From: a virus
DNA: 64,000 nt
IMG/VR virus record: IMGVR_UViG_3300034105_003151
Coordinates: 64,001 to 128,000 of that record
Direction: 5' to 3' (one strand)
How positions within the stretch are numbered: position 1 is the stretch's first letter; each line of letters starts with the position of its first letter. The notes beneath the pieces are model-generated. The model was given only the letters and a program-made list of their open reading frames with translations. It was not told the origin of the DNA and ran no database searches. Of this stretch, positions 44,506 through 59,524 are shown piece after piece. The position numbers were made by a program, and so were the translations under genes.

Positions 44506-44539
44506 TCATATGTACACTCATAAGCACCTAAGACCTTGA

Positions 44540-44621: not shown

Positions 44622-44775
44622 ACTGTACTATCTAAATTACGCTACTAGAGCCCTGCTTGGCACGGTATTTGCACATCGAAAATATTTTGGATTTTCTTGG
44701 ATTTTTCTCTTGCAAGAGGTCGATAGAGTATGTATAATGCACTCACAAGAGAAACGAAGGAAAAAGGAAAAGAAA

Positions 44776-44952
44776 ATGCGAGACATCAAAGTTGGCGAGC
44801 GGGTGGTTTTGGTGGAATCCGATTGGCTGTATGATGACGGTCAAGAGCCGCGTGGTGTGGTCGTTCGAGATTTGGGTCAAGGTGGATTTGTGATCCTGTG
44901 GGATGATGGTGAAGAGGGATCGGTTTCGGAAGAACAACTGGCTCACGAATAA
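44776..44952 (+). CDS. Small SH3/KOW-like protein
   Basis: IKVGERVV...GVVV...ILWDDG. Confidence 0.6.
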   Translation: MRDIKVGERVVLVESDWLYDDGQEPRGVVVRDLGQGGFVILWDDGEEGSVSEEQLAHE

Positions 44953-45034
44953 AAAAGAAAAAAGGCTATTGACAGCGGTGAAAAAAGTCGATAAAATACT
45001 AGAACAAGAGAACGAAGAACAAAGGAAAAAGAAA

Positions 45035-45175
45035 ATGTACGCTGTCAAGAATGTCGATTGCAAGTGGGTTGTGGTGGCTGGCAAGGTTGAGTTGGCCTCT
45101 TTCGCCACGGAGAATGAGGCTAACCGCTATGCCGATTATATGGATCGGATGGATCGTCGGGACAACGGTCGATAA
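45035..45175 (+). CDS. Early hypothetical protein
   Basis: AAGGA RBS; F.TE.EA motif; DRMD..DNG C-terminus like 43891-44055. Confidence 0.6.
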   Translation: MYAVKNVDCKWVVVAGKVELASFATENEANRYADYMDRMDRRDNGR

Positions 45176-45252
45176 TTCAAAAAAGCTGTTGACAGATTCG
45201 GATTCGGACGATAAAATCCTAGCAGATCGATAACCCCAAAAGGATTCTGAAA

Positions 45253-45435
45253 ATGGACAACTTCACGGGCGAGATGTTTGCCGATTTTGATGTCTATCAA
45301 GCCAGAATGGAGAATGAAGCCATGCCTTATGAGGATTGCGAAACTTATGACCCCATTATGGGGGGTGATGAGGATTGGACCGAAACGGACGATGATTTTG
45401 CCGCCGATTATTACGGCGAAGAGGAGTTTGCCTAA
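45253..45435 (+). CDS. Highly acidic small protein
   Basis: Asp/Glu-rich, no Lys; own promoter. Confidence 0.65.
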   Translation: MDNFTGEMFADFDVYQARMENEAMPYEDCETYDPIMGGDEDWTETDDDFAADYYGEEEFA

Positions 45436-45448
45436 AAGGGCAACTTGA

Positions 45449-45501
45449 CCTAAACCTTTGCCTCGTAAAGACTTACGGCGAGGCGGGCGGGCCGATTTTT
45501 T
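45449..45501 (+). repeat. Box-linker repeat, half copy 3
   Basis: cctaaaccttt-7-aaagacttacg + gcgaggcgggcgggccg. Confidence 0.85.
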
Positions 45502-45672
45502 TGGCACGGTATTTGCATTTAGCAAACGGTGTGCCAATTACCTCGCCAATTTTCTTTTCTGTTTGGCATGGAAAATAATTTCAAATTTCTTGGATTTTTT
45601 TCTTGAAACTCAAGTTTGTCTCTGTATAATGTCGATAGATAAGAGAGAAACGAAACCCAAGAGGATACGATC

Positions 45673-45900
45673 ATGCGAGCCATCGAAAACGCTAACGTCA
45701 AGGAAAACACCTATTACGAAATCAGCATCGCCTCCCCTATCTGTGGTACTTATACCATACGGGGAATGTTTTTCTTCGTTGACGTTGATGCTAACAAAGT
45801 GGGAATTATTCCCGCATGGAACACCAATATCCTGCTCAACTACGATGCTGATTGGATTGTGAGTGTTGACGGTGTTGACGGAGACACGAAGGGGGATTGA
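45673..45900 (+). CDS. Early hypothetical protein
   Basis: GAGGA RBS; promoter. Confidence 0.65.
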   Translation: MRAIENANVKENTYYEISIASPICGTYTIRGMFFFVDVDANKVGIIPAWNTNILLNYDADWIVSVDGVDGDTKGD

Positions 45901-46024
45901 TATTCCCCACAAGGGGAGGAAGAAACCTTACGGAAATGTAAGGAAACTTTCTTGTTGACACTCAATTCCTACCCTGTATAATGTCGATAGATTCACAAGA
46001 GACACAAGCCCAAAGGAAAAGACC

Positions 46025-46192
46025 ATGCACCCCACAATCCCCAAGCACTTCGAAGCTCGATTTGTTCTCCAGTATGATTCTTCTTTTAATGTCTACAACG
46101 TTTATGAGAAAATGAATGGTGGGGGAGTGCAGATTATCGCAGGTTTTCCTACTTTTTCGCAAGCTGTTCGATGCATGGAACAGAATGAATGA
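46025..46192 (+). CDS. Hypothetical protein (55 aa), related to 61217-61432
   Basis: YEKMNG...IIAGFPTF.QA vs IEKWNG...IVAGFPTLEEA. Confidence 0.55.
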   Translation: MHPTIPKHFEARFVLQYDSSFNVYNVYEKMNGGGVQIIAGFPTFSQAVRCMEQNE

Positions 46193-46424
46193 AGGCGAAC
46201 CTTACGAAAATGTAAGGAAAGTTTTCTGTTGACAACCCTTCCCCTAGACGATAGAATACAAACATGACACAACAAATGCAAAACACGCTTAGTCGCCTCA
46301 CCGCTACCCACGGCTATACTCCTACCTTTGTGCAGGATTTGGGCTATGGTATTCATGTGTACAGTATCGGTGGATACTACTACAAGCTTCGCGGCGATGG
46401 TACGATTCTGTGAAAGGGAAAACT

Positions 46425-46607
46425 ATGTTTGAAAGCTACGATACTCACGAGCTTGGTTTGCGGATGGTGCAATTCCAAGAGTCTTTGGCTAAGTGTAAGC
46501 CTGAACAGGTGTTCGTCTGTTCATTCCTTCGCCAGATGATTTCCTCTATGGCTAGGGAACTGTTGTACAGGTACAGGCGAGAGACTAAACTTCTGTGCAG
46601 TAGGTGA
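46425..46607 (+). CDS. Hypothetical protein, paralog of 44317-44505
   Basis: YDTHELG.RMVQFQ...ARELLYRYR. Confidence 0.7.
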   Translation: MFESYDTHELGLRMVQFQESLAKCKPEQVFVCSFLRQMISSMARELLYRYRRETKLLCSR

Positions 46608-46621
46608 ACAAAAGTACTCGA

Positions 46622-46703
46622 CGTAAAGCCTTACCACATAAGGACTTACGACTAGGCGGGCGGGCCGCGTTTTTCGTAACTCCTTATCTGGCAACGACTT
46701 AGG
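46622..46703 (+). repeat. 82-bp repeat, copy 4
   Basis: cgtaaagcctt-7-aaggacttacg / 24 / cgtaactcctt-7-aacgacttagg. Confidence 0.92.
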
Positions 46704-46903
46704 TCAAATGCTAACGCAAACCGCGTGCCGTTCGTTTTGGCACGGAAAATGCATTTAGCAAAGAGTGTGCCATTCGTGATGAAAATTGGAAAAAGTTGTG
46801 TCAAAATCTCTTGACAAAAAAATCCAAAAAAATCTCTTGCATTCTCAAGTTGGCGTGGTATAATGTCGATATAAGAGTAAGAGACAAAGAAAGAGAGAAA
46901 AGA

Positions 46904-47056
46904 ATGTTTGAGATTGGTGACCGGGTGATTGTGGATTGCGACGTTGTGGGTCGGATTATCGGATGGAGATATGACGAAGGTAATGTGTGGGCCGTACAGA
47001 TCACCAATGGTGATATCATTGAATGTGCCGACGATTATCTCTCTCCAGCTAAGTGA
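46904..47056 (+). CDS. Small SH3/KOW-like protein
   Basis: FEIGDRVIV..VGRIIG. Confidence 0.6.
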   Translation: MFEIGDRVIVDCDVVGRIIGWRYDEGNVWAVQITNGDIIECADDYLSPAK

Positions 47057-47148
47057 TTCCAATCCTTACGATATTGTAAGGAAACTTTTCCTGTTGACAA
47101 ATCGCACAAAAGACGATAAAATAGAAACACAAGAAAGAAAAAACAAAA

Positions 47149-47475
47149 ATGAGCAAGTTGAACAGTATCACGCTTCGTAAAGATAACAGTATGATTGAGC
47201 ATTACATTCGTGAGGATGGTGTTCAAGATATCTATCGTTTCAAGAATGGTTATGGTGCTAGCGTTGTATGTTCTTGCGGTAGTTATGGTGGTAAACAGGG
47301 ATTGAAAGAGTTGGCAGTTCTTGATAAGGATGGACATATCTGTTATGATACTCCGATTACTGGTGATGTTCTTGGATGGCTGACGGATGAGCAAGTAGAA
47401 GAGTATCTGAGTCAGATTGCGAACCTTCCTACTGAAGTGAAAAAGCTCTCTACCGAAGTTAAGAGACTTACATAG
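47149..47475 (+). CDS. Conserved phage hypothetical protein
   Basis: FKNGYGASVV...SYGG..GL.ELAVL...YDTPITGDVLGWLT motif familiar from phage early genes. Confidence 0.75.
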   Translation: MSKLNSITLRKDNSMIEHYIREDGVQDIYRFKNGYGASVVCSCGSYGGKQGLKELAVLDKDGHICYDTPITGDVLGWLTDEQVEEYLSQIANLPTEVKKLSTEVKRLT

Positions 47476-47527
47476 GTTAGATTAGGACGTTTAGTAAACT
47501 ACAGTTTTTACACAGAAAGAAGAAAAG

Positions 47528-47719
47528 ATGTACAGTTTCATTTGGCTGTGTCGGATGATGCAAGAGCGAACGGAAGTCGTTCTTTTGGGTGGTGATAATA
47601 AGACCTACTATGGTACTATTAATAGTATCGTCATCGATGATGGTAGTGGTAGGAGCTGGGTTGTAACGCTTGCGTTGGTTGGTGGTGGATATAAAACTAT
47701 TCTTGTAAAGGCTGAGTAA
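47528..47719 (+). CDS. Hypothetical protein
   Basis: ORF track; TAATG coupling. Confidence 0.6.
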   Translation: MYSFIWLCRMMQERTEVVLLGGDNKTYYGTINSIVIDDGSGRSWVVTLALVGGGYKTILVKAE

Positions 47720-47982
47720 TGAACGGTTACGAACTGCTTGAACTTTTTGGCCGACAACTGCGTGAGGCTATCGAGGTTCCTAATTCTTGGCTTCCCGAAG
47801 AGTTTAGGGACGAGCGTACCGATAGTGTTACACTTGCCGATCTGGAACATAAGTGTGACATTCGTGATAGTAACAACATGACCGACTACGAATACGAAAA
47901 GGCCGAAAAGGCCAAGCGTATACTGTTGTACACTGAACAGGTGAACAGTGGTGCAGAAGAATTGACCTATCTACAAAAGTGA
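47719..47982 (+). CDS. Hypothetical protein
   Basis: ORF track; stop abuts repeat copy 5. Confidence 0.6.
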   Translation: MNGYELLELFGRQLREAIEVPNSWLPEEFRDERTDSVTLADLEHKCDIRDSNNMTDYEYEKAEKAKRILLYTEQVNSGAEELTYLQK

Positions 47983-47983
47983 T

Positions 47984-48065
47984 CGTAAGTGGTTGTTGCA
48001 TAAGGACTTACGACGAGCGGGGCGGGCCGTTTTTAACGTAAACCCTTATCACCAAAGGACTTGCG
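47984..48065 (+). repeat. 82-bp repeat, copy 5
   Basis: cgtaagtggtt-7-aaggacttacg / 24 / cgtaaaccctt-7-aaggacttgcg. Confidence 0.92.
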
Positions 48066-48247
48066 ACAAGTGTTTTAGCCAAACTACCCAGATGCCGCAC
48101 AGCAAGTCTTGTGCCAAACAGGCCCAAAATAAGGAAAAGTTTTGTCAAAATCTCTTGACAATATTTTTGGGATTTTTCTCTTGCGTTCTCAAGTGGATAT
48201 GGTATAATGTCGATATGAGAGTTAGAGACAACAAGAGAGAAAACCAA

Positions 48248-48430
48248 ATGAACATCGAAACTGACCACATCATCCGACTTCTGACCAGCCTGTTTAATGA
48301 ACGGGAAAAGGAGTCGGTCATGTCTATGGCCTACGCAAAACTGACGGTGGACATCCTGCAAATCGAAAAGATTCTCGCTCATCGTGGTGTCGATGTTGGG
48401 CAAATCTTCTCAAACCTTACGGAAATGTAA
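48248..48430 (+). CDS. Hypothetical protein
   Basis: ATG after promoter and purine-rich leader. Confidence 0.6.
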   Translation: MNIETDHIIRLLTSLFNEREKESVMSMAYAKLTVDILQIEKILAHRGVDVGQIFSNLTEM

Positions 48431-48859
48431 GGAAAGATTTCGCTTGCAATCCTCAAGACCATCGGGTAAAATGTCGATATAGAAGAAAAGAAAGAAAGAA
48501 GAAAATGAGAAAGTTTTACAAAATTTCGGATGATGGATATGATCGTTATAAAGATGATCGTGATGGATATGTTTCTGCTCAAGAACAGCTTGATAGGCAA
48601 GCTGCGTTTGCCAAAGAGATCGGTGATATACAAGCCAAGTCGTTGGCGCTGTTTTGCAAGAAGAATGGATTGAAAGACTGAATATGAGAACTGTATACGT
48701 TTACAAGTGGATTAACCACACTACTGTTTATATGGGAACCGTTAGGATTCCTAGTGATAACTTCCTCGCTCAGTTGAAGGTTATTCACGACACTTTTGGT
48801 GATGATTGTGTGTGGTACAATCGTCCGATTCTTGATCCTCTTGCTCTGAATGGTTGAAT

Positions 48860-49102
48860 ATGACTATCTCTGATTTAAATATGGATGATGTGTGCTGTGT
48901 TACCTACACGGCTCCTCATAGGTTGGTGCCTCATAGTAATTATGTTGGTACTGTTGTACGTCTTGGTAAGGCCGGTGGTGGTCCGATCCGCCCTGGATAC
49001 TCCAGCGATAGTGATGATCATTATGTTATTATCCGACTGAATGATGATACTCACCGTACTCTTTCTCAGAGTAAGGTTATCAACATCTCTCTGTGGGAGT
49101 AA
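48860..49102 (+). CDS. Hypothetical protein
   Basis: ORF track. Confidence 0.5.
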   Translation: MTISDLNMDDVCCVTYTAPHRLVPHSNYVGTVVRLGKAGGGPIRPGYSSDSDDHYVIIRLNDDTHRTLSQSKVINISLWE

Positions 49103-49118
49103 ATAAAAGAAAACTCGA

Positions 49119-49200
49119 CCTAAACCCTTGTCAGATAAGGACTTAGGGCAAAAACGGCGGGCCGCGTTCGCCGTAAACCCTTACGCGGCAACGACTTACG
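49119..49200 (+). repeat. 82-bp repeat, copy 6
   Basis: cctaaaccctt-7-aaggacttagg / 24 / cgtaaaccctt-7-aacgacttacg. Confidence 0.92.
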
Positions 49201-49409
49201 ACAAGTCATGAGGCAAACCGTGTGCTACAAAAAAATATTCTTTGGCATGGAACGTGCATTAGCAAACCCCGTGCCGAACTAGATCAAAATGACCCAAAGT
49301 TTTGTCAAAATCTCTTGACACAAATCCGAGAAGATTTTTCTTGCAAAGTGGATTTTGTCTGGTAAAATGCCGATATACAAGATAGGACACAAGGAAAAAA
49401 GGAAAGAAC

Positions 49410-49601
49410 ATGAAAACGGTCACCCTCACCATCGACACCTACAACAAGAGCTTCGCCCTCCATGCGGCTGTCAAGGGTCGGATCGATCATCTCTCAGAGT
49501 TGCTCTCTAGCAAGGGATTGAGCGGTGAAGTCAAGGACATTTTCCGCAAGGATTTGGCCGAACTTAAGGCTATGCAAAAGCAGTTGGACAACTGGGATTG
49601 A
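49410..49601 (+). CDS. Small helical hypothetical protein
   Basis: AAGGA RBS; promoter. Confidence 0.65.
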   Translation: MKTVTLTIDTYNKSFALHAAVKGRIDHLSELLSSKGLSGEVKDIFRKDLAELKAMQKQLDNWD

Positions 49602-49684
49602 ACCTAACGAAATTGCAAGCTTGACACCGCCGCGACGATTTGCTAGAATCCAATCTCACAAGAAAACTCCAAAGGAAAAAGACA

Positions 49685-50020
49685 ATGACTGATATCCAAA
49701 CCCTCTCGACTCGCAAGCTCATCCGTTACGCCAAGCGTCAAGCTCGCTCTAGCTTCCTTGGCATGGTTACGGAAAGTGAAGATAAGGAAGTCGATGGTAT
49801 TCCTGTGACGGTTCACACTGTTCGCAAGTTCAATCGGAAGGCTCTGCTGAATCCGCCCAAGGTTAAGAAGGATCGTCCCGCTGGTGATGCTAGTATCATT
49901 CGCGTCGGTAATCCCGGTTCGTCTGAGCGTCTGGATGCCTACGCTGCGTTCTACGCTGCGAATGGTTGCGTTAATAATAAGTACGATGGTAACATTTCCC
50001 CTTTTATGGACATGAATTGA
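49685..50020 (+). CDS. Basic hypothetical protein
   Basis: AAGGA RBS; promoter. Confidence 0.65.
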   Translation: MTDIQTLSTRKLIRYAKRQARSSFLGMVTESEDKEVDGIPVTVHTVRKFNRKALLNPPKVKKDRPAGDASIIRVGNPGSSERLDAYAAFYAANGCVNNKYDGNISPFMDMN

Positions 50021-50192
50021 ATATGATCAAGGTTTACATTGTGATGCAGACCAATAGTACTACTGACTATGCTGTTGGTGTGTTTCTTTCGTTGGATTCT
50101 GCCCGAAAATGTGTTGACCAATTGAAGGCTCATCCCAATAATAAGTATCTGCATTTCTGGATTGACTCTAATAACACTTTACAGGATTAACA

Positions 50193-50396
50193 ATGACTGT
50201 TTACCTTGTTTTTACAACTATGCTTGATCAAACCTCTTTTGTGGGTGCTTATCAAACCCGCGAACTAGCCGATGAAACAATCAAGATGCTTAAGAGTGTT
50301 CAGTTCGTTGGTAAAGAATACTGGGTGATCGAAGAACCAGTTGTAACAAAACTGTATGAAGTCGATCCTTGGCTCGGAGCCAATCGAAACACTTAG
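50193..50396 (+). CDS. Hypothetical protein
   Basis: VYLV...VGAYQTRELA...YWVIEE motif. Confidence 0.6.
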   Translation: MTVYLVFTTMLDQTSFVGAYQTRELADETIKMLKSVQFVGKEYWVIEEPVVTKLYEVDPWLGANRNT

Positions 50397-50412
50397 TACG
50401 ATACGAACTTGA

Positions 50413-50494
50413 CGCAAACCCTTGCTGCGTAAGGACTTACGGCGAGGGCGGCGGGCCGCGTTTGACGCAAACCCTTTGGAGGCAACAACTTACG
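50413..50494 (+). repeat. 82-bp repeat, copy 7
   Basis: cgcaaaccctt-7-aaggacttacg / 24 / cgcaaaccctt-7-aacaacttacg. Confidence 0.92.
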
Positions 50495-50854
50495 TCAACC
50501 TTACGGAAAATTCAGAATTGACATTTGAGAAAGTTGTGGTATAATGTCGATAGTGATAGGAGAGGGATGGTTGGAGTAGGACTGTCCAATCTAATCATCA
50601 CCAGTTGGCCCCGTAGTCAGTAGTCAGTGGGCTTGACAAGTAAAGATTTCTTGGTAGAATGTCGATAAAGGAGAAAAGCATGATTCTTGCTCTACAGGTT
50701 GCTGGTCTGTTTTTTGGTATCTGGTTCGCATCTGTGAATATTGCTAATATTATTCATGGATATGCAGTGAATTGGAAGAATATGCTGGTTATGTCTGCGG
50801 CATGGACTTCATTCATTACTGCGACATGGTTGATTTAAAAAAGGGAAAATAATA

Positions 50855-51163
50855 ATGGGACTACAAGCACTGATTAATGCTCTCGCCGCTGCTGACCAAG
50901 ATTACGTCGCTCCGTTTGGGTTTGGATCGCCCGATAGTTATCGTGGTTACTATTTTGACGTAGCTTTCGAACCTGAACGAAATGTGACTGTCGCATCAAT
51001 GCTTGCTCATGCGAAGAGTGCATTGGGAGCAACATTTACAGGATATAAGGGTGGAGAGTATGTGATGGGTCCACATACGGACTGCTATATTGCACAATAT
51101 GGTGAATGTTATGGAGATAAGATTGGCCCCGTCTTGGTTGCTTATCTTACGGGTCAGGCTTGA
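50855..51163 (+). CDS. Conserved phage hypothetical protein
   Basis: P.SYRGYY.DVAFEP...G.TFTGYKGGEY.M motif. Confidence 0.75.
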   Translation: MGLQALINALAAADQDYVAPFGFGSPDSYRGYYFDVAFEPERNVTVASMLAHAKSALGATFTGYKGGEYVMGPHTDCYIAQYGECYGDKIGPVLVAYLTGQA

Positions 51164-51207
51164 CTTTTCTGCGTAGCATGATACAATTATCCAAAAGGAA
51201 AACTTCG

Positions 51208-51423
51208 ATGAAAATCAGTATGTGTATTGGCAATTGGGTTGCTTTCAGAGAGATAAAGCCCAACACTCTTTTCCAATTTTGTGAAAGGACATATCTCAAA
51301 CTTGACGAACAAAATCTATGTGGTGTCAATCTTCATTCTGCCACAATCACTCATTTTGAGGAAGAGGATGTTGTTATCCCGCTAGAGTCCAATATTCTGA
51401 TAGTACATCCAGTTGTAGACTAA
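51208..51423 (+). CDS. Small beta-barrel family protein, copy 1 of 5
   Basis: MKI...VAFREI.P..LF.F....YLK...V.L...F.....V.P. Confidence 0.65.
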   Translation: MKISMCIGNWVAFREIKPNTLFQFCERTYLKLDEQNLCGVNLHSATITHFEEEDVVIPLESNILIVHPVVD

Positions 51424-51440
51424 CAAAAAAGGAGAAAGTA

Positions 51441-51659
51441 ATGATTTTTGAACGAGCAAAGCCAAAAGTTACATCTGTGGAGTTTCGGGATCTCCCCTTT
51501 GGTGCTAATTTCATATATGGGGGCGAACTATTTCTCAAGGTGATTAATCCAACCTCCGATAATAATTCTGTTGGTCTTGAGGCCAACCGCATGTGGTGGT
51601 TTGGTAAAGACATTGTGGTTACTCCCACTAAAGTCAAGATAGTTGAGGTGACAGAATGA
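51441..51659 (+). CDS. Small beta-barrel family protein, copy 2
   Basis: VEFRDLPFG.NFIY...FLK...VGL...V.P. Confidence 0.65.
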   Translation: MIFERAKPKVTSVEFRDLPFGANFIYGGELFLKVINPTSDNNSVGLEANRMWWFGKDIVVTPTKVKIVEVTE

Positions 51660-51821: not shown

Positions 51822-52058
51822 ATGAAAAGTATGCTCAAGGTTAGCCACAAAACTGTTATTGAGAATCAGGGGCCGTGCGGAACTGGCTGGGATGATTATT
51901 CTTGGGAGGTAGCATATCATGATGGTACTGATCCATCTTTTACTATCTCATACATTGAAGTATCGGACTACAAGAACAATCAGCACAACAATATGACAGT
52001 GGAGGAAGCCGTCCAGATTGCCCGTGCTATCCTTAGAATGGTGGGAGAAAAAGAATGA
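51822..52058 (+). CDS. Hypothetical protein
   Basis: ORF track; stop abuts repeat copy 8. Confidence 0.6.
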   Translation: MKSMLKVSHKTVIENQGPCGTGWDDYSWEVAYHDGTDPSFTISYIEVSDYKNNQHNNMTVEEAVQIARAILRMVGEKE

Positions 52059-52059
52059 A

Positions 52060-52106
52060 CGTAAACCCGTGTGGCGTAAGCACTTACGTCAAATCGGGCG
52101 GGCCGC
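52060..52106 (+). repeat. Box-linker repeat, half copy 8
   Basis: cgtaaacccgt-7-aagcacttacg + tcaaatcgggcgggccg. Confidence 0.85.
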
Positions 52107-52208
52107 GAAAATCGTGCCAAAGAATTTTGCGATTTTGCAGAAAGATTTCTCTAGATTCTGCTTGACGGTGCCGATAAATATGGTATACTTAGAGCATCAC
52201 AAGGAGAA

Positions 52209-52511
52209 ATGAAAGTGGAACATAACGGATTCAAGAACAAAGCAACGTGGCTCGTCTCGCTCTGGCTGAATAACCAAGAGCATATCTATACCCATTGGCG
52301 GAATGTCGCCCACACCATTGGCAGACAATATCCTCCTATGAATGAGGCTGTGGTTCGGCTCGCGGATCGATTGGAAGATTGTTTTCAGAGTATGGCCGTT
52401 GATGCTCTTGAAACCAATCCAATGTTTGTCGATATTCTTCAATCGGCTCTGGCCGATGTTGATTGGAAAACGATTGCTGGACATTTCATCGATGCGGCAG
52501 CGGGTGCTTGA
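52209..52511 (+). CDS. Conserved phage hypothetical protein
   Basis: NG..N..TW.V.LW..N...VDW..IA motif; AGGAG RBS. Confidence 0.75.
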   Translation: MKVEHNGFKNKATWLVSLWLNNQEHIYTHWRNVAHTIGRQYPPMNEAVVRLADRLEDCFQSMAVDALETNPMFVDILQSALADVDWKTIAGHFIDAAAGA

Positions 52512-52557
52512 CAAACTCTTTTCGTGTGTTAGAATACGGATTCACAAGGAGAAAATC

Positions 52558-52731
52558 ATGCGGGACTTTGATGAAATCAACTTGATTCTTGACCAGCTTC
52601 ACGCCGAAGGAATGGTAGAGCCGGTAGTCGAGCCTATTGATGATCCTTCCCTCCAAATTGACTTTTACGATTGGGCAGAAATCGTGGGAATTGATGTTGA
52701 CGAATGGGCACCGGAGGAGTACAATGCCTGA
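52558..52731 (+). CDS. Acidic small protein
   Basis: AGGAG RBS; Asp/Glu-rich. Confidence 0.6.
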   Translation: MRDFDEINLILDQLHAEGMVEPVVEPIDDPSLQIDFYDWAEIVGIDVDEWAPEEYNA

Positions 52732-52800
52732 ATCATTTCTGGTCTTTGGTTTCTGGATCATGGTTTCAATTATGTTTCTAACCTACAAGGAATAAATATC

Positions 52801-52953
52801 ATGGGTTTTAATGATCATGACAACACGGAACACGATTCCGATTTCTACGATTCCGTGGGCGATGTAATGGACGGAGATCACGATTCCGCCATGCGTGATG
52901 CGGGATGGGGGACGGACGAGGATTATGGATTTTTCGGTGGCGATGACGATTGA
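52801..52953 (+). CDS. Highly acidic small protein (50 aa; not in the ORF track)
   Basis: MGFNDHDNTEHDSDFYDS...AGWGTDEDYGFFGGDDD*. Confidence 0.6.
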   Translation: MGFNDHDNTEHDSDFYDSVGDVMDGDHDSAMRDAGWGTDEDYGFFGGDDD

Positions 52954-53020
52954 CAAAACGTTTTGTTGTGGTATACTTCGATAGTTGTTTGGATTTTCTT
53001 TCACAAAGGGATTTTTTAGT

Positions 53021-53452
53021 ATGAATAATGTCAGTTTTTCTGTTGCTCTTTTTGTTGTCGCTCTTGTTGGTGCGGTGGTTGGTTATCTGGCCTATAACAG
53101 TGCATATGGTGGACTCAAGTATAGGCTGAATAAGGTTAGTCTGACCAATGCCCAAAAGGGTGAGGTTTATAACTTTACTTATTGCCAGCCTCTTAGTGGA
53201 AAGCGTGAACGTTATCTGGCAAGGGTTGAGAATGTTAATCTGCTGACTGCACAACAGATCAGTAGACTTAATACTCATAGTAATTATCGTGCTAATGATC
53301 CTTCATTTGAGCGTAGTAGCACTCTTGTTACTGTTCGTACTTATGATGGTCAGATTCGGAATGTGTATGCTGAACGTTGTGTAAATGTACGCAAGCCTTA
53401 TCTTGGACAAAAGCTGTTTGGTATGCCCAAGGTTGCGGCATATCTGCTCTAA
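53021..53452 (+). CDS. N-terminally membrane-anchored protein
   Basis: TM VALFVVALVGAVVGYLAY, then a beta-rich domain. Confidence 0.65.
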   Translation: MNNVSFSVALFVVALVGAVVGYLAYNSAYGGLKYRLNKVSLTNAQKGEVYNFTYCQPLSGKRERYLARVENVNLLTAQQISRLNTHSNYRANDPSFERSSTLVTVRTYDGQIRNVYAERCVNVRKPYLGQKLFGMPKVAAYLL

Positions 53453-53472
53453 AAACGAGCAACGCTACTCGC

Positions 53473-53554
53473 CGTAAACCCTTTGTGCGTAAGCACTTAG
53501 GGCACGGCGGGCGGGCCGTTTTTGACGTAAGTCTTTATGCAGTAAGGGGTTGAG
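53473..53554 (+). repeat. 82-bp repeat, copy 9
   Basis: cgtaaaccctt-7-aagcacttagg / 24 / cgtaagtcttt-7-aaggggttgag. Confidence 0.9.
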
Positions 53555-54076
53555 TCGAGTTTTTTTCTAAAGGTTCGTGTTGACACTGGACGATAAGATG
53601 GTATGATTCGTAAACGGAGGCTGACCAATGAGTTACGTTTGGTGGGTGATTGTGGGATGTAGGAGAGTTGGGTATGTTGAGAGTCCTAGTGAAATTGGGG
53701 CGACTAGGGCGGCAAAAGAGAAGTTTGGTGATTCCGCCTGGGTTGAGAGGTACTCGGATATGAATGTGTGTAACTTCTAAACCCTCCTGTTTGTGCCGCT
53801 GTGCGTTAGTCAGTTAAAGACTATGGGGTTGACAGGTCGATAAAACGATGGTAGAATGGTGGAAAAGAGGATAAAATGAGAACATTTGCTCAATTTGAAC
53901 AATGGGCCAAAAGTATTGGCTACGTTGTAGAGAGGGTTGGTCGGCGTATTGAATGGTATCATAAGGATAATCATAGTATTATTGGAGTGTGTTCTACTAT
54001 CCAACAAACTATTGATGAAATCTGTGATGATATTCTAGCTTGACAAAAACGAGATCTGGTGTATAATGGAAGACAC

Positions 54077-54147
54077 GGGCTTGTAGTACAATGGGAGTAC
54101 ATTCGGCTTGCATCCGAAAAATGAGGGTTCGATTCCCTTCCTGTCCA
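54077..54147 (+). tRNA. tRNA-Ala(TGC)
   Basis: Cloverleaf, G3:U70; acceptor stem has mismatches. Confidence 0.75.
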
Positions 54148-54152
54148 CTTAT

Positions 54153-54223
54153 GCGAGTGTAATACAATGGTAGTATGTCTGCCTTCCAAGCAGAACATGG
54201 GAGTTCGATTCCCCCTACTCGCA
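54153..54223 (+). tRNA. tRNA-Gly(TCC)
   Basis: TCTGC-CTTCCAA-GCAGA. Confidence 0.85.
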
Positions 54224-54235
54224 CTTGATGATTTT

Positions 54236-54306
54236 AGGTGAATAGTATAATGGTAGTACCGCCGTCTCCAAAGCGGCTCGCGTGGGTTCGATTCCTACTT
54301 CACCTG
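54236..54306 (+). tRNA. tRNA-Trp(CCA)
   Basis: GCCGT-CTCCAAA-GCGGC. Confidence 0.85.
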
Positions 54307-54316
54307 CTTTAGTTAT

Positions 54317-54389
54317 GGTCCGTTGGCCTAGCGGTTAAGGTATCTCGTTTACACCGAGAGGATCGGGGGTTCGAATCCCTCACGGACTA
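54317..54389 (+). tRNA. tRNA-Val(TAC)
   Basis: TCTCG-TTTACAC-CGAGA. Confidence 0.85.
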
Positions 54390-54435
54390 CTTAGAAATGG
54401 TGTATAATTTTGGTATAACAAGAAAGATTATACCA

Positions 54436-54780
54436 ATGACAAAATACACAGAAAAAACTTGTAAGAAACATGGGATTTGTAGATTTGTATTAGAAGGAAG
54501 TGGGTACTACAGGTGTACAAAATGTAGATCTACTGCTGTACATAATAGGCGTAAAAAAGTAAAACTACTATTAGTACAGTACAAAGGTGGTAAGTGTGAA
54601 CAATGCGGCTATAATAAGTGTGTAGCAGCATTAGAGTTTCATCACTTGGACCCTACACAAAAAGACTTTGGTATTGGTGCTAATGGTCATACTTTGGCAC
54701 TAGCAAAATTGAAACAAGAGGTAGATAAATGTATTTTGGTTTGTTCAAATTGTCATAGAGAGATACATGATGCGGGATAG
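54436..54780 (+). CDS. HNH endonuclease inserted in the tRNA array
   Basis: KGGKCEQCGY...LEFHHLDP...KCILVCSNCHREIH. Confidence 0.9.
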   Translation: MTKYTEKTCKKHGICRFVLEGSGYYRCTKCRSTAVHNRRKKVKLLLVQYKGGKCEQCGYNKCVAALEFHHLDPTQKDFGIGANGHTLALAKLKQEVDKCILVCSNCHREIHDAG

Positions 54781-54842
54781 CATAACGGTAATGCGCCAAC
54801 CTGTTAAGTTGTCAGATATAGGTTCGATTCCTATTCCCGTAG
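54771..54842 (+). tRNA. tRNA-Asn(GTT)
   Basis: CAAC-CTGTTAA-GTTG; overlaps the HNH stop codon. Confidence 0.8.
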
Positions 54843-54852
54843 TTTTTAATTT

Positions 54853-54926
54853 GGGCTTGTAGCATAACTGGATAATGCCCCCGACTGTCCATCGGGTGAT
54901 TGCGGGTTCAAATCCCGTCAGGCCCG
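54853..54926 (+). tRNA. tRNA-Asp(GTC)
   Basis: CCCGA-CTGTCCA-TCGGG. Confidence 0.85.
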
Positions 54927-54932
54927 CTTTTT

Positions 54933-55004
54933 GTTGCTCTGGCTGAATGGCAAGGCGAGGGACTGCAAATCCCTTTTTTGTGGGTTCGAATCCCACGGGC
55001 AATT
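54933..55004 (+). tRNA. tRNA-Cys(GCA)
   Basis: AGGGA-CTGCAAA-TCCCT. Confidence 0.85.
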
Positions 55005-55020
55005 CTCAAAGGATAGAATA

Positions 55021-55176
55021 ATGGGAATTAAAACCAATCAATCTATAAAAGCTATCAAAGATTTATGCTTCATGGGCTGCACAACCCGCTGGGCTAAGAA
55101 TCATTCTAATCGCATTTCTAGACGCGATGCTAAGAACGAAATTCGTAAGGAAATACAGTATAAGGTTGAAAATTAA
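55021..55176 (+). CDS. Small basic hypothetical protein
   Basis: AGGA RBS; WAK..SNR..RR.AK. Confidence 0.55.
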   Translation: MGIKTNQSIKAIKDLCFMGCTTRWAKNHSNRISRRDAKNEIRKEIQYKVEN

Positions 55177-55179
55177 AGT

Positions 55180-55225
55180 CGGCCCGCCGGTTTTGACGTA
55201 ACTCCTTATGCAGCAACAACTTACC
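55180..55225 (-). repeat. Box-linker repeat, half copy 10 (reversed)
   Basis: Reverse strand ggtaagttgtt-7-aaggagttacg + tcaaaaccggcgggccg. Confidence 0.8.
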
Positions 55226-55297
55226 TCAAGCAAATAATTTCTCATGCTATGGGCTTGACATGGCCGATACCTATGGTAGAATGAACGAGTAAGACAT

Positions 55298-55397
55298 GGT
55301 GAAGGTAGCGTAGTGGTAGCGTGAGAGAAGTTCCGAACTGCGATAGCAGAGTAGGCAAGCAAATGCTCTTGTGATGGTTCGATTCCATCCCTTCACC
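55298..55397 (+). ncRNA. tRNA-like RNA with an expanded anticodon region
   Basis: GGTGAAGG/CCTTCACC acceptor, D-loop AGTGGTA, T-arm GATGG-TTCGATT-CCATC; ~38-nt insert in place of the anticodon loop. Confidence 0.65.
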
Positions 55398-55429
55398 CCT
55401 TGACAAACACGCAAAGCGTGATACAATTC

Positions 55430-55573
55430 TCGTGGACGAATGCGGTTAGATTGGAGTAGCCTAATACTGATGAACTGTGGCAGGGGATAGAACCCTGGTA
55501 GTCATAGTCTTACTGTTTGCTACGCAGAGTCAGTACTTAGCCAATCTACGGGGAGGTCGCGTCCCCGCCACGA
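55430..55573 (+). ncRNA. Structured ncRNA candidate A
   Basis: Own TTGACA-16-TACAAT promoter; nested helices tcgtgg/ccacga, tagattgg/ccaatcta, tactga/tcagta, cgggga/tccccg. Confidence 0.55.
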
Positions 55574-55696
55574 TTCATACACCCTGCGGGTTCGTAGGTT
55601 GTCCTCAAGGGGGGAGGATGTAAAAGACAGTGGGATAGTACTATAGCTCTATTGTTCCATACCCCCACCATACAACTCGTTAGAAAAGGAAAAGAT

Positions 55697-55897
55697 ATGA
55701 AAAGATTGACAATAAACGAAAAACAGGCGGCAAACCTAGTGCTTTGGGTGCAATGGACAAAAGAAGATATGGAGAAGATAGAACATCGATATCGATATAA
55801 TTGTAGTATTGGTGCTAGAGATGGTGATCCAAACGCATTCAAAGAAATGATTGATTCTGTTCTGGAATTGGCTGGAAGCCTTGACATTCTCGCGTAG
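55697..55897 (+). CDS. Hypothetical protein
   Basis: AAGGA RBS. Confidence 0.55.
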   Translation: MKRLTINEKQAANLVLWVQWTKEDMEKIEHRYRYNCSIGARDGDPNAFKEMIDSVLELAGSLDILA

Positions 55898-56104
55898 TGT
55901 GGTAGAATAGCAGAAAGAAAACAATGCTTATCCAAACCAAAAATCCCGATCTGTATAGGCTATGGATCGAATACTATGATGCTTTTCGTCCCGACATGAG
56001 AGGATATGAAAAGAGAACCTACGCCTTTTTTAATAGCGAAAAGGGCATTTATCCGGGTTGACTCTCACGCAAAGCGTGGTAGACTTGTAAAAAAGGAGCC
56101 AAAG

Positions 56105-56323
56105 ATGAAGATGAAGATTAAGCGTAGAGGAGAAGAGGAGCAGAGAGTTTCATTTGAGTCTCTTGAACCGGGACAGCTTTTTGAATACGCTAATAGGCTA
56201 ATGATCAAAATGGGTCCATATGAAGATGATGATGCTTTTGATATTGATAACAATATCACATTAATCATTTATCGACTCACTCAAGTACTGCCCCTTAACG
56301 CCACACTAACCATAGAGGAATAA
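56105..56323 (+). CDS. Small beta-barrel family protein, copy 3
   Basis: VSFESLEPGQLFEY...IK...V.P.NATL.I. Confidence 0.65.
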   Translation: MKMKIKRRGEEEQRVSFESLEPGQLFEYANRLMIKMGPYEDDDAFDIDNNITLIIYRLTQVLPLNATLTIEE

Positions 56324-56324
56324 G

Positions 56325-56552
56325 ATGAAGATTCAAGAGAATGAGAAACCCAAGATGGTTCCTTTTCGTGATATTGAACGTGGAGGTGTTTTTCGATATG
56401 CAAATGACATTATCATGAAGACTGATATCTATACGGTTGCAATAGGAACTCTTAAAGCGATCCGTTTGACAGATGGAGCGGGATTCGTATGTGTCTTTGA
56501 TGATGAAAAAACTCTTGTTGAGCCTCTTGACACTACTCTGGTGATTAACTAG
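56325..56552 (+). CDS. Small beta-barrel family protein, copy 4
   Basis: VPFRDIERGGVFRY...MK...AIRL...VEPLDTTLVI. Confidence 0.65.
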   Translation: MKIQENEKPKMVPFRDIERGGVFRYANDIIMKTDIYTVAIGTLKAIRLTDGAGFVCVFDDEKTLVEPLDTTLVIN

Positions 56553-56563
56553 GAGAATTGAAC

Positions 56564-56782
56564 ATGAAGATTACCAAAAAAAAGCGGGATTGGGTTAATT
56601 TCAAAGATATCCCGGTAGGTCAAACCTTCCGTGATGTGGATGAAGAGCCTTGTCTCAGAATAGAAACGACTGATTCAGGACATAACGCCATTTCCCTCTC
56701 AATTAATCGTGCTTATGAGTTTAGGGAAAATAATCTGGTGACTCCTATTAATGCAGAGTTGATTGTTGATGATCATCAATAA
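56564..56782 (+). CDS. Small beta-barrel family protein, copy 5
   Basis: VNFKDIPVGQTFR...NAISL...VTPINAELIV. Confidence 0.65.
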   Translation: MKITKKKRDWVNFKDIPVGQTFRDVDEEPCLRIETTDSGHNAISLSINRAYEFRENNLVTPINAELIVDDHQ

Positions 56783-56949
56783 GTACCGGGAGTAAGTATG
56801 ACTTACAAGTGGCTTGACGAAGCGGCAAAAGAAATCCTTGATAAGTTCACTATTGATCCAAATAGCAAGGTGGAGAATGGACTGACCGCGAAAGAAAGAA
56901 TGATTAGTTATATCCTAGCAGCTATTGACAATATCGAAAGGGAGTTAGA

Positions 56950-57210
56950 ATGACTATCGGTCAACTAATCGAAAAAATTGGTAATCTTCAACAGTACAAA
57001 CCTTGTATCAATCATGATTCAGGGTTTCCTTGGGCGGGTATGGAAGAATCTACTAAGGATGGATTTATTTTCGCGGCTGATCTCAAAAACATTCTAGAGG
57101 AGTTTCTTACAGGCTTGACTCTGGAAGCGATTGAAACCGTAATCAACTCTCCTAATAAGAATAAGCCTAAGATTGAACCTAAACTCTTGCCCGGTAAGGA
57201 CTTAGGGTGA
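56950..57210 (+). CDS. Hypothetical protein; 3' end runs into repeat copy 11
   Basis: GGAG RBS. Confidence 0.55.
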   Translation: MTIGQLIEKIGNLQQYKPCINHDSGFPWAGMEESTKDGFIFAADLKNILEEFLTGLTLEAIETVINSPNKNKPKIEPKLLPGKDLG

Positions 57211-57259
57211 ACCGGGCCAGCCCGATGTGTCGTAACTCCTTACGCAGCAACGACTTGCA
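57178..57259 (+). repeat. 82-bp repeat, copy 11 (divergent linker)
   Basis: cctaaactctt-7-aaggacttagg / 24 / cgtaactcctt-7-aacgacttgca. Confidence 0.85.
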
Positions 57260-57382
57260 GCAAGTTGTCAGAACTGACACTTATCCCCCCAAAACAGCCA
57301 TAAATTGCCAGAAGTGACACTCAAGATTTCGCTCTTGACAAGACGATATTGGGGTGTAGAATGATAGAACAAGGAGAGGATT

Positions 57383-57775
57383 ATGTATCGTGTTCGTTTT
57401 CATCTTCAATCTGGCAAAAACTACAAATGCTGGCAGATTTGTCAGATGAATGGTAGTCGGCGTGTCAAAGAAATCTACTACGACCCATCAAAGGTTCAGC
57501 TAGAACTAGTTGAGTGCAAGTTGGTCAACAAGGTTAAGATTGCTCGCAGGGTTCATGCCGAAGGTGTCAGGGATGTGGCAGGATGGGTTGAGTGCTTGGA
57601 AGTGAAAATCTCTGAAAATCCAGTTGACGGTCTTGAGAGATTATTTTACAACCCAATTCTCGATCCAAATTGGCGTAGAGATGGAGACAATGGGGAGTTT
57701 GTGTGGGACGATAGCGAATACAAAACACTGGTTACACAGGGCAAACGGGTTTATATTCTTGAAGAAAGGGTTTGA
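57383..57775 (+). CDS. Hypothetical protein
   Basis: RVRFHL..G.NYK.WQI...YNP; strong RBS. Confidence 0.7.
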   Translation: MYRVRFHLQSGKNYKCWQICQMNGSRRVKEIYYDPSKVQLELVECKLVNKVKIARRVHAEGVRDVAGWVECLEVKISENPVDGLERLFYNPILDPNWRRDGDNGEFVWDDSEYKTLVTQGKRVYILEERV

Positions 57776-57776
57776 A

Positions 57777-58169
57777 ATGATTAGTATTGAAATGACCGTT
57801 GCAGAGATTCTCGATCTTTATCGCAATTGCGATGTGAATTACAAGCTTAAGGAGCGTCTTGTTGCTGCTCTGGAGAAAGCTGTTGCTGTTAAGGGTATGG
57901 GTAATAACTATACATTCACTTTTTACTCACTGCGAAATCCAGAAAACTTCATTAACTGCATTAAGATCATCCGTCTTCACACAAAGATGCATCTTAGAGA
58001 CGCTAAAGAGTTTATGGATGTGGTTCGTGGGACGTTGTCTTATGATAATGTCTATCGTGGAGGCACTTCAAAGAATCTCACTGGTTATAGTGAAGATATC
58101 TGTTCTAAAATTGTGAGCGACCTTCGTGATATTGGCGAATGGGATATTAATTATACTCCATCTACTTGA
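57777..58169 (+). CDS. Protein with a ribosomal L7/L12 C-terminal-like motif
   Basis: INCIKIIRLHTKMHLRDAKEFMD resembles bL12 CTD I.VIK.VR..TGLGLKEAK..V. Confidence 0.5.
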   Translation: MISIEMTVAEILDLYRNCDVNYKLKERLVAALEKAVAVKGMGNNYTFTFYSLRNPENFINCIKIIRLHTKMHLRDAKEFMDVVRGTLSYDNVYRGGTSKNLTGYSEDICSKIVSDLRDIGEWDINYTPST

Positions 58170-58177
58170 TCGCTCTT

Positions 58178-58259
58178 CCTAAGTCCTTTCCCCGCAAGGG
58201 GTTAGGGCCGGGGCGGCGGGCCGCGTTTGACGTAACTCCTTATCCCACAACCTCTTACG
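58178..58259 (+). repeat. 82-bp repeat, copy 12
   Basis: cctaagtcctt-7-aaggggttagg / 24 / cgtaactcctt-7-aacctcttacg. Confidence 0.9.
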
Positions 58260-58459
58260 TCAACTACTCACAGCAAATCCCATGCCAAAGATTTTTTCAA
58301 GAAGAGGTGTTGACATGGACGATATAAGAGGTAGAATACAACAGTACGAGCAAGGAAACAGGGACGAGCAAAAAACAAAATCGACCAACTGCCCTTGACA
58401 AGTACACTTTGCGTTGTATAATTTTGGAAATGGTTCTAACACTTTTGAGGAATATAAAA

Positions 58460-58762
58460 ATGGATAAGATCAACGTTTGCGAGTTCAAGGTTAGTGTTTC
58501 GGGTGTTTCTGAGTCTTTCGACTATGCCGATGTGGTTGATACGATCAAGGCCGCTCTTGTCGAGGCACTGCCGGATAGCTACGGTGTTTATGCCCGTGCA
58601 GAGCAGATTCGTGAGATGACGCACCAGGGTTGGCTGAATTGCCGTGCCCGTGTGTACAACGTGACTGCTGTGGAAGCCGGTGACGGTAAGAGTGCCAGCA
58701 AGGTTATCAAGCTGACAGGAAAGAAGGTCAAGGAAGAGGAGACTGCTACGGCTACCGCCTGA
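58460..58762 (+). CDS. Hypothetical protein
   Basis: GAGGA RBS; promoter. Confidence 0.65.
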   Translation: MDKINVCEFKVSVSGVSESFDYADVVDTIKAALVEALPDSYGVYARAEQIREMTHQGWLNCRARVYNVTAVEAGDGKSASKVIKLTGKKVKEEETATATA

Positions 58763-58798
58763 CTTGACAAACTCGACCCAGCGAGTATAAACAGCTTT

Positions 58799-59010
58799 TA
58801 GGCTGGGTGCGGTGGAACAGTAACCATCCTGTTCCGCGTAAGGATTATCGGCGTGGGATTCGCCGGTCTAGTAGAGTCTAACCAACTGATAAGACAGTGG
58901 TACTCGTTGAAGCGGCTTGCTACTAGTATTATAATGTGGTAAAGTAGTCGCACCACAAAACCGTTAGCCCTCACGGGACGCCGTGGGGGCTTGCGGCATT
59001 AGTAGACCTA
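58799..59010 (+). ncRNA. Structured ncRNA candidate B (~210 nt)
   Basis: Promoter TTGACA-16-TATAAA; helices ggtgcg/cgcacc, gtggaacag/ctgttccgc, cggcg/cgccg, ctagtag/ctactag, gccctcacgg/ccgtgggggc. Confidence 0.6.
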
Positions 59011-59027
59011 ATAAACTGGAGAAAAAA

Positions 59028-59186
59028 ATGGCAAAGTCAAAGAGTTATGATCCTAGTACAAAGTTGACAAAGTGTACTTGTAAGCACGCTTTTCAGGATG
59101 CTGAGTATGGCGAAGATATTCGTCTCATGAATAAGAAAAAGGCCGGTGGTTTTTGCTGCACTGTTTGTGGTAAAGACAAGGTATAA
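59028..59186 (+). CDS. Small Zn-binding protein
   Basis: CTCKH.FQD..YG...CTVCG; GGAG RBS. Confidence 0.65.
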   Translation: MAKSKSYDPSTKLTKCTCKHAFQDAEYGEDIRLMNKKKAGGFCCTVCGKDKV

Positions 59187-59326
59187 TCAATAATAATATG
59201 ACGATTAAAGTCGAACGTAATCGTTGAAAGTCGGAACAAAAAAGCTAAATAAAGACTAGTGAGTTAGCCTCCTCCTAGTCTGGTACACCTAATCTACCCA
59301 ATTAGCAAACAAAATCCGACATAAGT

Positions 59327-59408
59327 CACAAGTCCTTATACAGCAAGTACTTAGGGCTGGGCCGGCGGGCCGCGTTCGCCGTAAGTCCTTATCTACCAAC
59401 ACTTTACG
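59327..59408 (+). repeat. 82-bp repeat, copy 13
   Basis: cacaagtcctt-7-aagtacttagg / 24 / cgtaagtcctt-7-aacactttacg. Confidence 0.9.
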
Positions 59409-59524
59409 AGTTGTTTCGCCTTCTGCAACAACTGCAAATATCATGCCAAAGATTTTTCAAAGATTTACCCCTTGACTTGCCGATAAGATATTGTAGAATG
59501 ACAGGACACAAGGGAGAATGAAAA

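Follow-up and report, generated by a model that had tools for sequence, protein, structure and literature searches.

Transcription by RNA polymerase carrying sigma-54 is viewed as a bacterial route for stress and metabolism, and phage transcription programmes are explained by sigma-70, by phage sigma factors, or by phage polymerases. To our knowledge, the sigma-54 route has hardly been studied in phages. Here we describe a cluster of sigma-54-like -24/-12 sites in the early region of a phage represented by the IMG/VR virus record IMGVR_UViG_3300034105_003151 (151.3 kb), of which we analyzed bases 64001-128000. This stretch of 64,000 nucleotides is called the window, and coordinates are given within it. 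A first-pass annotation of the window had marked thirteen such sites and proposed that they act as a decoy or roadblock for the host's sigma-54 polymerase. Our analysis supports their identity and tentatively points to activator-gated promoters built into the boundary modules of early gene cassettes.

The sites share several features with classical sigma-54 promoters (glnAp2, pspA, nifH, and divergent pairs that share an activator region), namely the TGGCAC and TTGC elements 10 bp apart, the same secondary preferences, an A/T tract upstream, and, in related phages, short palindromic repeats at approximately -84 to -170 between divergent sites. In contrast to those promoters, they are found in a lytic-type early region rather than in a bacterial regulon, no activator was found encoded nearby, most copies in this phage are directed away from genes, and no accompanying IHF consensus was found. 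Intragenic, antisense, and repressive sigma-54 sites have been mapped in E. coli and Salmonella (PMC4591121, PMC4551910, PMC3844500). As in those bacteria, many of the phage sites have no downstream gene, and both inactive holoenzyme and competition with sigma-70 have been documented for the bacterial sites. The latter are single and scattered over the chromosomes, however, whereas the phage sites are clustered, form pairs of fixed geometry, and occupy one position of a repeated intergenic module. Among phages, the promoter-early stem-loop (PeSL) cassettes of T4-type phages (Arbiol et al. 2010, PMC2839356) also consist of a repeated stem-loop and an early promoter that is strong and sigma-70-like, and they are placed among the small orphan genes of a plastic region, an arrangement that is represented here by 14 elements and 25 promoters. 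Unlike the locus described here, PeSLs have no sigma-54 element, and the hairpin of this phage, which is of an unrelated, long-tailed type, is a 90-nt box-linker-box structure. A sigma-54-like promoter of Pseudomonas phage YuA has been attributed to host sigma-54 (Ceyssens et al. 2008, as reported in bioRxiv 10.1101/2023.10.13.562163), but the 58.7 kb of YuA contain only one relaxed motif match and neither an array nor pairs. Our literature search returned no paper on phage sigma-54 arrays or face-to-face pairs, the precedent being single sigma-54-like promoters such as that of YuA. We know of no description of overlapping face-to-face sigma-54 pairs.

Sigma-54-like sites in the early region

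Seven exact matches to TGGCAY-N5-TTGC are present in the window, compared to 0.21 expected from whole-window shuffles and 0.05 from a first-order Markov simulation of 43-61 kb alone, and relaxing the motif to YGGCAY-N5-WTGC gave 11 matches vs. 0.18 expected. Neither form occurs in 1-43 kb, which bears out the enrichment of 43-61 kb over both the rest of the window's left side and shuffled sequence. A weight matrix built from related phages (see below) recovered 12 sites in the window, to which the degenerate copies at 43429 and 49213 can be added for a total of 13-14, and all of them fall within 43.4-59.5 kb. Every site quoted in the first-pass annotation was found again at the same coordinate and on the same strand; of its thirteen sites, nine are on the minus strand, and therefore antisense to the early genes, and four are on the plus strand. 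The three face-to-face pairs that it had reported (45502/45521, 46738/46757, and 49243/49261) are also present, with gaps of 3, 3, and 2 bp, respectively, between their 16-nt motifs. Measured from where a box-linker-box element ends, every site begins at -6 to +55 nt, confirming the earlier observation that sites adjoin this element, and 9 of the 14 elements in the window bear sites. A further homologous module lies at 64733, just past the window end.

The leftmost copy is a degenerate site (CGGCAC-N5-CTTGC, 43429..43443, minus strand) that lies where the two gene arms meet, beside a half box-linker element in inverted orientation. It is followed by the sense site TGGCACGGTATTTGCA (44658..44673, plus strand), 30 nt past a box-linker-box element and 37 nt ahead of a sigma-70-like -35 hexamer, and by a face-to-face pair at 45502..45536 (sense 45502-45517, antisense 45521-45536, gap 3 bp). 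Two alternating triples come next in kind, one at 46715..46772, composed of a weak antisense site (46715-46730), a sense site (46738-46753), and an antisense site (46757-46772), and the other at 49213..49276, composed of a degenerate antisense site (49213-49227), a sense site (49243-49258), and an antisense site (49261-49276). Between them lies the antisense site TGGCACAAGACTTGCT (48101..48116, minus strand), which is directed into a box-linker-box element 30 nt off. The remaining three sites are also antisense and on the minus strand. The one at 52104..52119 has a weak -12 element (TTCGC) and overlaps the end of a half box-linker element, TGGCATGGGATTTGCT at 58272..58287 lies 7 nt from a box-linker-box element with its -24 end 22 nt from a sigma-70-like -35 hexamer, and TGGCATGATATTTGCA at 59433..59448 has its -24 end 23 nt from such a hexamer. 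In the modules at 58272, 59433, and 64733, this distance of 22-23 nt places the -24 end over the zone of the upstream promoter (UP) element.

The motif is conserved in a family of related phages

We assembled a family set of 44 non-redundant related loci and contigs (673 kb; individual loci are referred to by L numbers) and found that the spacer of the motif is strictly 5 nt, with 65 occurrences compared to 1-13 for each of the other spacers of 1-10 nt. A matrix refined on 115 family sites reads TT-TGGCA[CT]-[GA][GA]N[AG]T-TTGC-[TA], with the GG and GC dinucleotides invariant in 114-115 of the 115 sites and with information content near zero both in the spacer and right outside the 18-nt motif. 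Secondary preferences include T at -27, G or A at -20, a purine at -19 (94/115), TTT ahead of the GC, and T or A after it (105/115), which agrees with an extended sigma-54 consensus that has a pyrimidine preceding TGGCAC, G or another purine following it, TT ahead of GC, and W behind it. Barrios and colleagues reportedly listed in 1999 a purine after TGGCAC and W after GC among the preferences of sigma-54. At the level of sequence, the family matrix equals the published sigma-54 consensus TGGCAC-N5-TTGCT (PMC12316311) at all 11 core positions and with the same spacing; the comparison was made against this consensus, as the supplementary matrix of that study proved to be a protein motif and was not used.

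The sites are conserved in approximately 30 related contigs. Among copies with homologous flanks, the GG, the A, and the GC are constant while spacer positions differ in 44-72% of pairs, and in the relatives the motif is accompanied by quite different boxes and linkers. Because the core is fixed while the spacer and flanks diverge, and because information is confined to the motif, it appears that the motif itself is under selection and is not a fragment of a repeat. In 22-kb loci, which reach 10 kb beyond the terminase in both directions, the early-gene side holds 46 of 47 sites. Neighboring family sites are separated by fixed gaps of 4-5 bp when convergent and of 6-7 or 16-18 bp when divergent. 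Antisense sites have A/T-rich sequence upstream and the GC-rich, structured hairpin element downstream, while sense sites show the reverse. The commonest layout is exemplified by L019, a closer relative, where a hairpin element, an antisense site, an 18-nt A/T spacer, a sense site, a CCTTACG hairpin, and a sigma-70 promoter follow one another.

Orientation and upstream repeats

The orientation of the sites appears to matter, judging from what lies upstream of them. In eight relatives, a sense site lies 32-58 nt ahead of an ATG, with a ribosome-binding site, an upstream A/T tract, and no intervening sigma-70 promoter. In the relatives, 20 sites have arrays of at least two GCAAAATGC units (palindrome TAGCA-N3-TGCTA) within 200 nt on their upstream side and no site has one downstream, and the palindrome TGTCAA-N6-TTGACA is upstream of its site in 12 of 12 family cases, 11 of them at 42-43 nt centre to centre, although both counts include homologous copies and therefore do not represent independent events. 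Three of these palindromes are in the window, at 46799..46816, 48143..48160, and 49303..49320, each 42 nt (centre to centre) upstream of an antisense site (46757, 48101, and 49261, respectively). In the relative L027, three GCAAAATGC units lie between divergent sites, at approximately -84 to -170 from each inferred start, and one of these sites would drive a gene while the other is directed into a hairpin element; as far as layout goes, this is a textbook enhancer arrangement. The TAGCATTTTGC(TA) and triple GCATTTTGC arrays of relatives, which lie upstream of sites and in some cases between divergent sites, are candidate enhancers for an activator. Triple TAGCATTTTGC(TA) arrays were observed at L027:2779-2853 and also in L046, L049, L059, L061, L024, and L085.

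In this phage, the upstream candidates are the palindrome at approximately -61 of three antisense sites and the palindromic boxes upstream of the sense sites. The palindrome TGTCAA-N6-TTGACA, which a regulator or activator might bind, separates the divergent sigma-54-like and sigma-70-like promoters. It is located midway between the two, at approximately -61 and -65, a layout that resembles dimer sites of the CRP/FNR or FleQ type. Most sites have an A/T tract on their upstream side. The first-pass annotation had suggested that adjacent IHF-like boxes would complete an enhancer architecture, but this did not hold up, as the IHF consensus WATCAANNNNTTR occurs 10 times in the window vs. 6.8 expected and is not enriched, with one copy in the early region; an IHF site is common at sigma-54 promoters, though not essential to them.

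Face-to-face pairs recur in other viruses

At least 120 viral contigs contain the face-to-face composite TGGCAY-N5-TTGC-N3-6-GCAA-N5-RTGCCA, compared to approximately one that we estimate would do so by chance. The exact 35-nt composite of this genome had no match in viral contigs, while the degenerate composite did. Among the matches listed, the contigs (L094-L213, for example L108:6999-7034) range from 30 to 68% GC, 12 of them share sequence with this phage family, and the two halves are most often 4 bp apart. At least 67 composite contigs have four sites or more, and unrelated phages often show them as regular alternating arrays with a period of approximately 41-44 bp. At least 61 contigs have the composite in the control region between divergent arms, at a distance of 0.4-1.4 kb upstream of the genes for terS, terL, and an SU10/P22-type portal. 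No shared neighboring genes beyond terS, terL, and portal were found among the composite contigs listed, and the terminase of this other composite-bearing phage group has no close cultured relative. The composite was absent from 401 bacterial genomes sampled in one phylum, which is of little information as approximately three would be expected at the viral rate.

Because the same motif occurs in phages of very different GC content without shared neighbors other than the packaging genes, a universal host factor fits better than a phage-specific repressor, and the reader of the sites is probably universal. Taken with the strict spacing, the match of the family matrix to the consensus, and the conservation in relatives, this recurrence in unrelated phages gives good comparative support to the identification of the elements as sigma-54 -24/-12 sites, which was the premise of the first-pass annotation.

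The boundary module

The sites are part of a module that separates early cassettes, in which a stop codon is followed by the hairpin element, one to three sigma-54-like sites, an A/T tract or palindrome, a sigma-70-like promoter, and the next gene. The hairpin element is a box-linker-box structure of approximately 90 nt in which two imperfect palindromic boxes flank a GGCGGGCGGGCCG linker; the copy at 46621..46709, for example, can form a single long hairpin on either strand. Other site-bearing copies are at 44539-44627, 45442-45499, 47983-48071, 49118-49206, 52053-52110, 58177-58265, and 59326-59414. Summed over copies, folding energies are equal on the two strands (-317 vs. -319 kcal/mol). 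We considered whether the element is a minus-strand small-RNA gene and rejected this as a firm claim because of the equal fold energies and the variable distance between site and element. Because the box sequence changes while the palindromy and the G-rich linker stay, the boxes appear to co-vary as palindromes across the family. In some relatives (L032:1083-2100, L062:435-2650), the boxes of the boundary element are TGCCA-N3-TGGCA palindromes and the G-rich linker is retained.

Between 43 and 61.5 kb there are 25 sigma-70-like promoters on the plus strand with at least 11 of 12 consensus matches, and the early promoters are of the canonical TTGACA/TATAAT type. The promoter at 48181..48208 (plus strand; TTGCGT, 16 nt, TATAAT) is predicted to serve the cassette after the module, and equivalent promoters are present at 44710-44738, 45603-45630, 46837-46864, 49341-49368, 52162-52189, 58310-58337, and 59472-59499. 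A second type of hairpin, CCTTACG-N5-TGTAAGG, follows internal early genes approximately 10 nt ahead of the next sigma-70-like -35 hexamer (43800-43822, 44055-44077, 45924-45946, 46198-46220, 47062-47084, and 48413-48435). In relatives, a sense sigma-54-like site can be found 5-6 nt ahead of this hairpin.

Interpretation of the sites

We believe that the sites are best explained as real, activator-gated sigma-54 promoters that have been built into the boundary modules of early cassettes and are read by host sigma-54 RNA polymerase, a view that we hold tentatively and rate at slightly below an even chance. Real promoters are favored because the repeat arrays and the palindrome are found upstream only, and because sense sites in relatives stand directly before genes that have no other promoter. 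From these patterns we infer binding by sigma-54 and transcription, as well as the fate of the antisense RNAs and the identity of the activator discussed here. The host polymerase would read the sites as oriented promoters that require an activator, with transcripts predicted to begin 11-13 nt past the GC at -12. Sense copies would provide a cassette with a second, gated promoter upstream of its sigma-70 promoter, while antisense copies would fire back into the hairpin element and produce antisense RNAs of approximately 100-130 nt, complementary to the 3' end of transcripts from the preceding cassette. Such short antisense RNAs are plausible because, in 4-6 of eight antisense modules, the hairpin element is trailed by T-rich runs on the minus strand, and antisense RNA, which the first-pass annotation had also proposed, may be a product of the nine minus-strand sites. 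Alternatively, transcription from the antisense copies could collide with read-through. Face-to-face pairs would be compact either/or bidirectional units. Given the invariant GC at -12, the polymerase should wait as a silent closed complex until it meets an activator, which might come from the host, as an enhancer-binding protein, or from the phage, as a factor that has escaped recognition. In principle, activation could also proceed with no dedicated enhancer, by analogy with a promiscuous activator lacking its DNA-binding domain that fires sigma-54 promoters from solution (PMC3844500). Effects of occupancy on adjacent sigma-70 promoters would be a by-product of the closed complex, which could act as a competitor or insulator next to them; such competition may accompany the sites because complexes at 58272, 59433, and 64733 would cover the UP-element zone.

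Several observations weigh against this explanation. Antisense sites lie at variable distances (-6 to 55 nt) from the hairpin element, and there would thus be no conserved RNA 5' end relative to the element. The two members of an overlapping face-to-face pair cannot both be occupied at the same time, and the first-pass annotation had pointed out that they cannot both be productive. Across the family, orientation is near balance (64 sites antisense and 51 sense to early genes), and in this phage all four sense sites have a sigma-70-like promoter between the site and the gene. The GCAAAATGC arrays of the relatives are absent from this phage, and its palindrome at approximately -61 is nearer than classical enhancers, which are located some 80-150 bp upstream. 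The conservation statistics are partly circular, as the sites were gathered by the motif itself. In the phage and four complete relatives, no sigma-54 activator domain (PF00158) was detected except in a RuvB homolog. Finally, two genome bins that hold related contigs are discordant, one belonging to Rickettsiales and the other to Flavobacteriales, and rpoN is present in the Flavobacteriales bin only; both bins are probably binning artefacts.

A broader version of the promoter explanation, which we find rather doubtful, is that arrays and face-to-face pairs are a widespread, unrecognised phage device in early or inter-arm control regions of many lineages that encode no AAA+ activator. A host activator triggered by infection, or a new phage factor, would then unlock idle sigma-54 polymerase as a separate temporal class of transcription, one that would include antisense RNAs turning off early cassettes. 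The palindromic units might otherwise hold holoenzyme as a switchable bidirectional gate.

It is unlikely, in our estimation, that the sites serve for occupancy only, with sigma-54 polymerase bound and never activated, so that it would act as a trap, as an insulator or roadblock, or as a competitor that dampens sigma-70 early promoters. This is the family of functions to which the decoy or roadblock of the first-pass annotation belongs, and it has several points in its favor. No activator gene was found in the phage or the four relatives, and the invariant GC at -12 fits both tight, activator-dependent closed complexes and the sigma-54-dependent repression seen in E. coli (PMC4551910). The near-balanced orientation and the overlapping pairs also look independent of orientation, three modules place a -24 end 22-23 nt from a sigma-70 -35 hexamer, over the UP-element zone, and the array period of approximately 41-44 bp in unrelated phages is near the packing limit of the holoenzyme. 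The upstream polarity, however, at 20:0 for the repeat arrays and 12:0 for the palindrome, would be unexpected if orientation were irrelevant, and nor would occupancy account for sense sites directly ahead of genes that have no other promoter. Sites are also bound to one module position rather than scattered, and a sponge would have more capacity if its sites did not overlap, whereas the two sites of the commonest pairing exclude each other. Because of the polarity data and these capacity-wasting pairs, a pure sponge or decoy is the less likely form. The comparative data thus do not favor the decoy or roadblock, although occupancy may still have effects, as a competitor or insulator next to the sigma-70 promoters.

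We consider it quite unlikely that the sites are the operator of some other DNA-binding protein, of phage or host, whose likeness to sigma-54 sites is coincidental and for which the pairs would be dimer or tetramer sites regulating early promoters. The pairs are indeed palindromic with fixed gaps (4-5 bp convergent; 6-7 or 16-18 bp divergent), as is typical of oligomeric regulators, and sites can be packed approximately 20 bp apart, which is too dense for holoenzyme on every one. The early region encodes dozens of orphan small proteins, and scanning very many windows will occasionally yield a mimic of a consensus. Many abundant freshwater hosts have no sigma-54, and this explanation would become necessary for a host lacking rpoN, such as a freshwater actinobacterium or cyanobacterium. 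The single site, however, is asymmetric (TGGCAC vs. TTGC, 10 bp apart) and matches sigma-54 at 11 of 11 core positions, with the same spacing and secondary preferences. Many sites are solitary, the motif recurs in phages of 30-68% GC that share packaging genes only, and the phage encodes no sigma-54 DNA-binding domain.

That the sites are functionless passengers in a boundary cassette that spreads and shuffles by recombination, like the promoter-stem-loop cassettes of T4-type phages, is highly improbable: the sites do lie inside repeated modules (families D1-D4 and D12), the fixed distances of 42-43 nt and 64 nt might be explained by a shared ancestry of the copies, and cassette shuffling at repeated regulatory modules has been documented (PMC2839356), but information falls to approximately zero right outside the 18-nt motif and in the spacer, the core is fixed while spacer and flanks diverge, different boxes and linkers accompany the motif in relatives, and the motif is also found in unrelated phages.

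A conserved set of sigma-54 sites at every boundary between early cassettes throughout the family would mean either a new layer in how phages time their genes or a new means of disarming a host factor, and the presence of the same palindromic pair in at least 120 viral contigs reinforces this significance. The DNA specificity of sigma-54 is conserved, and the idea can therefore be tested without culturing either the phage or its host.

Search for a reader, an activator, and a host

To look for proteins that could act on the sites, we used profile searches, which returned no match in the phage to the sigma-54 DNA-binding or core-binding domains, to sigma-70 region 2, or to HU/IHF, and neither the phage nor the four complete relatives yielded a gene for sigma-54 or sigma-70. 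Ten early proteins had no transcription-related Pfam domain. The RuvB homolog mentioned above is full length and is encoded before the window (G000:C1:16067-16960), with a RuvB_N match at 1e-42 followed by lid and winged-helix domains.

Regarding the host, a search with GDP-mannose dehydratase gave mostly viral clusters and no clue, an identical-protein search matched just one further assembly, and the cyanobacterial HIP1 motif is absent from the phage. A Bacteroidota host was judged unlikely given the canonical TTGACA/TATAAT early promoters and the Shine-Dalgarno-like sites that are present before early-region genes. Some abundant freshwater hosts lack sigma-54. Actinomycetota, for instance, have no rpoN (PMC12316311).

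Genome setting

The window is divided into two arms. The left 43 kb contain packaging and tail genes on the minus strand, including those for the terminase, the portal, a 2601-aa tape measure protein, and a DUF285 fibre protein, while dozens of small plus-strand genes and two tRNA clusters extend rightwards from 43.4 kb. GC content differs between the structural arm (33-38%, 1-43000) and the early/tRNA arm (41-46%, 43000-64000), and the sign of the GC skew switches at approximately 42-44 kb. At the boundary between the packaging and early arms (43324-43372), three tandem TTGACA hexamers spaced 12 nt apart are followed by an A6-C8 run. A search with 8-20 kb of the window gave no DNA match to cultured phages, and the terminase is approximately 25% identical to those of Bacillus siphophages, with no cultured phage closer. 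IMG/VR holds 376 terminase relatives at 71-77% identity, chiefly from lakes and estuaries. An Rfam search identified solely tRNAs and a Pistol self-cleaving ribozyme (RF02679), which lies on the plus strand between early genes (58771-58843) and scores 55.2 bits, compared to a gathering score of 34.5.

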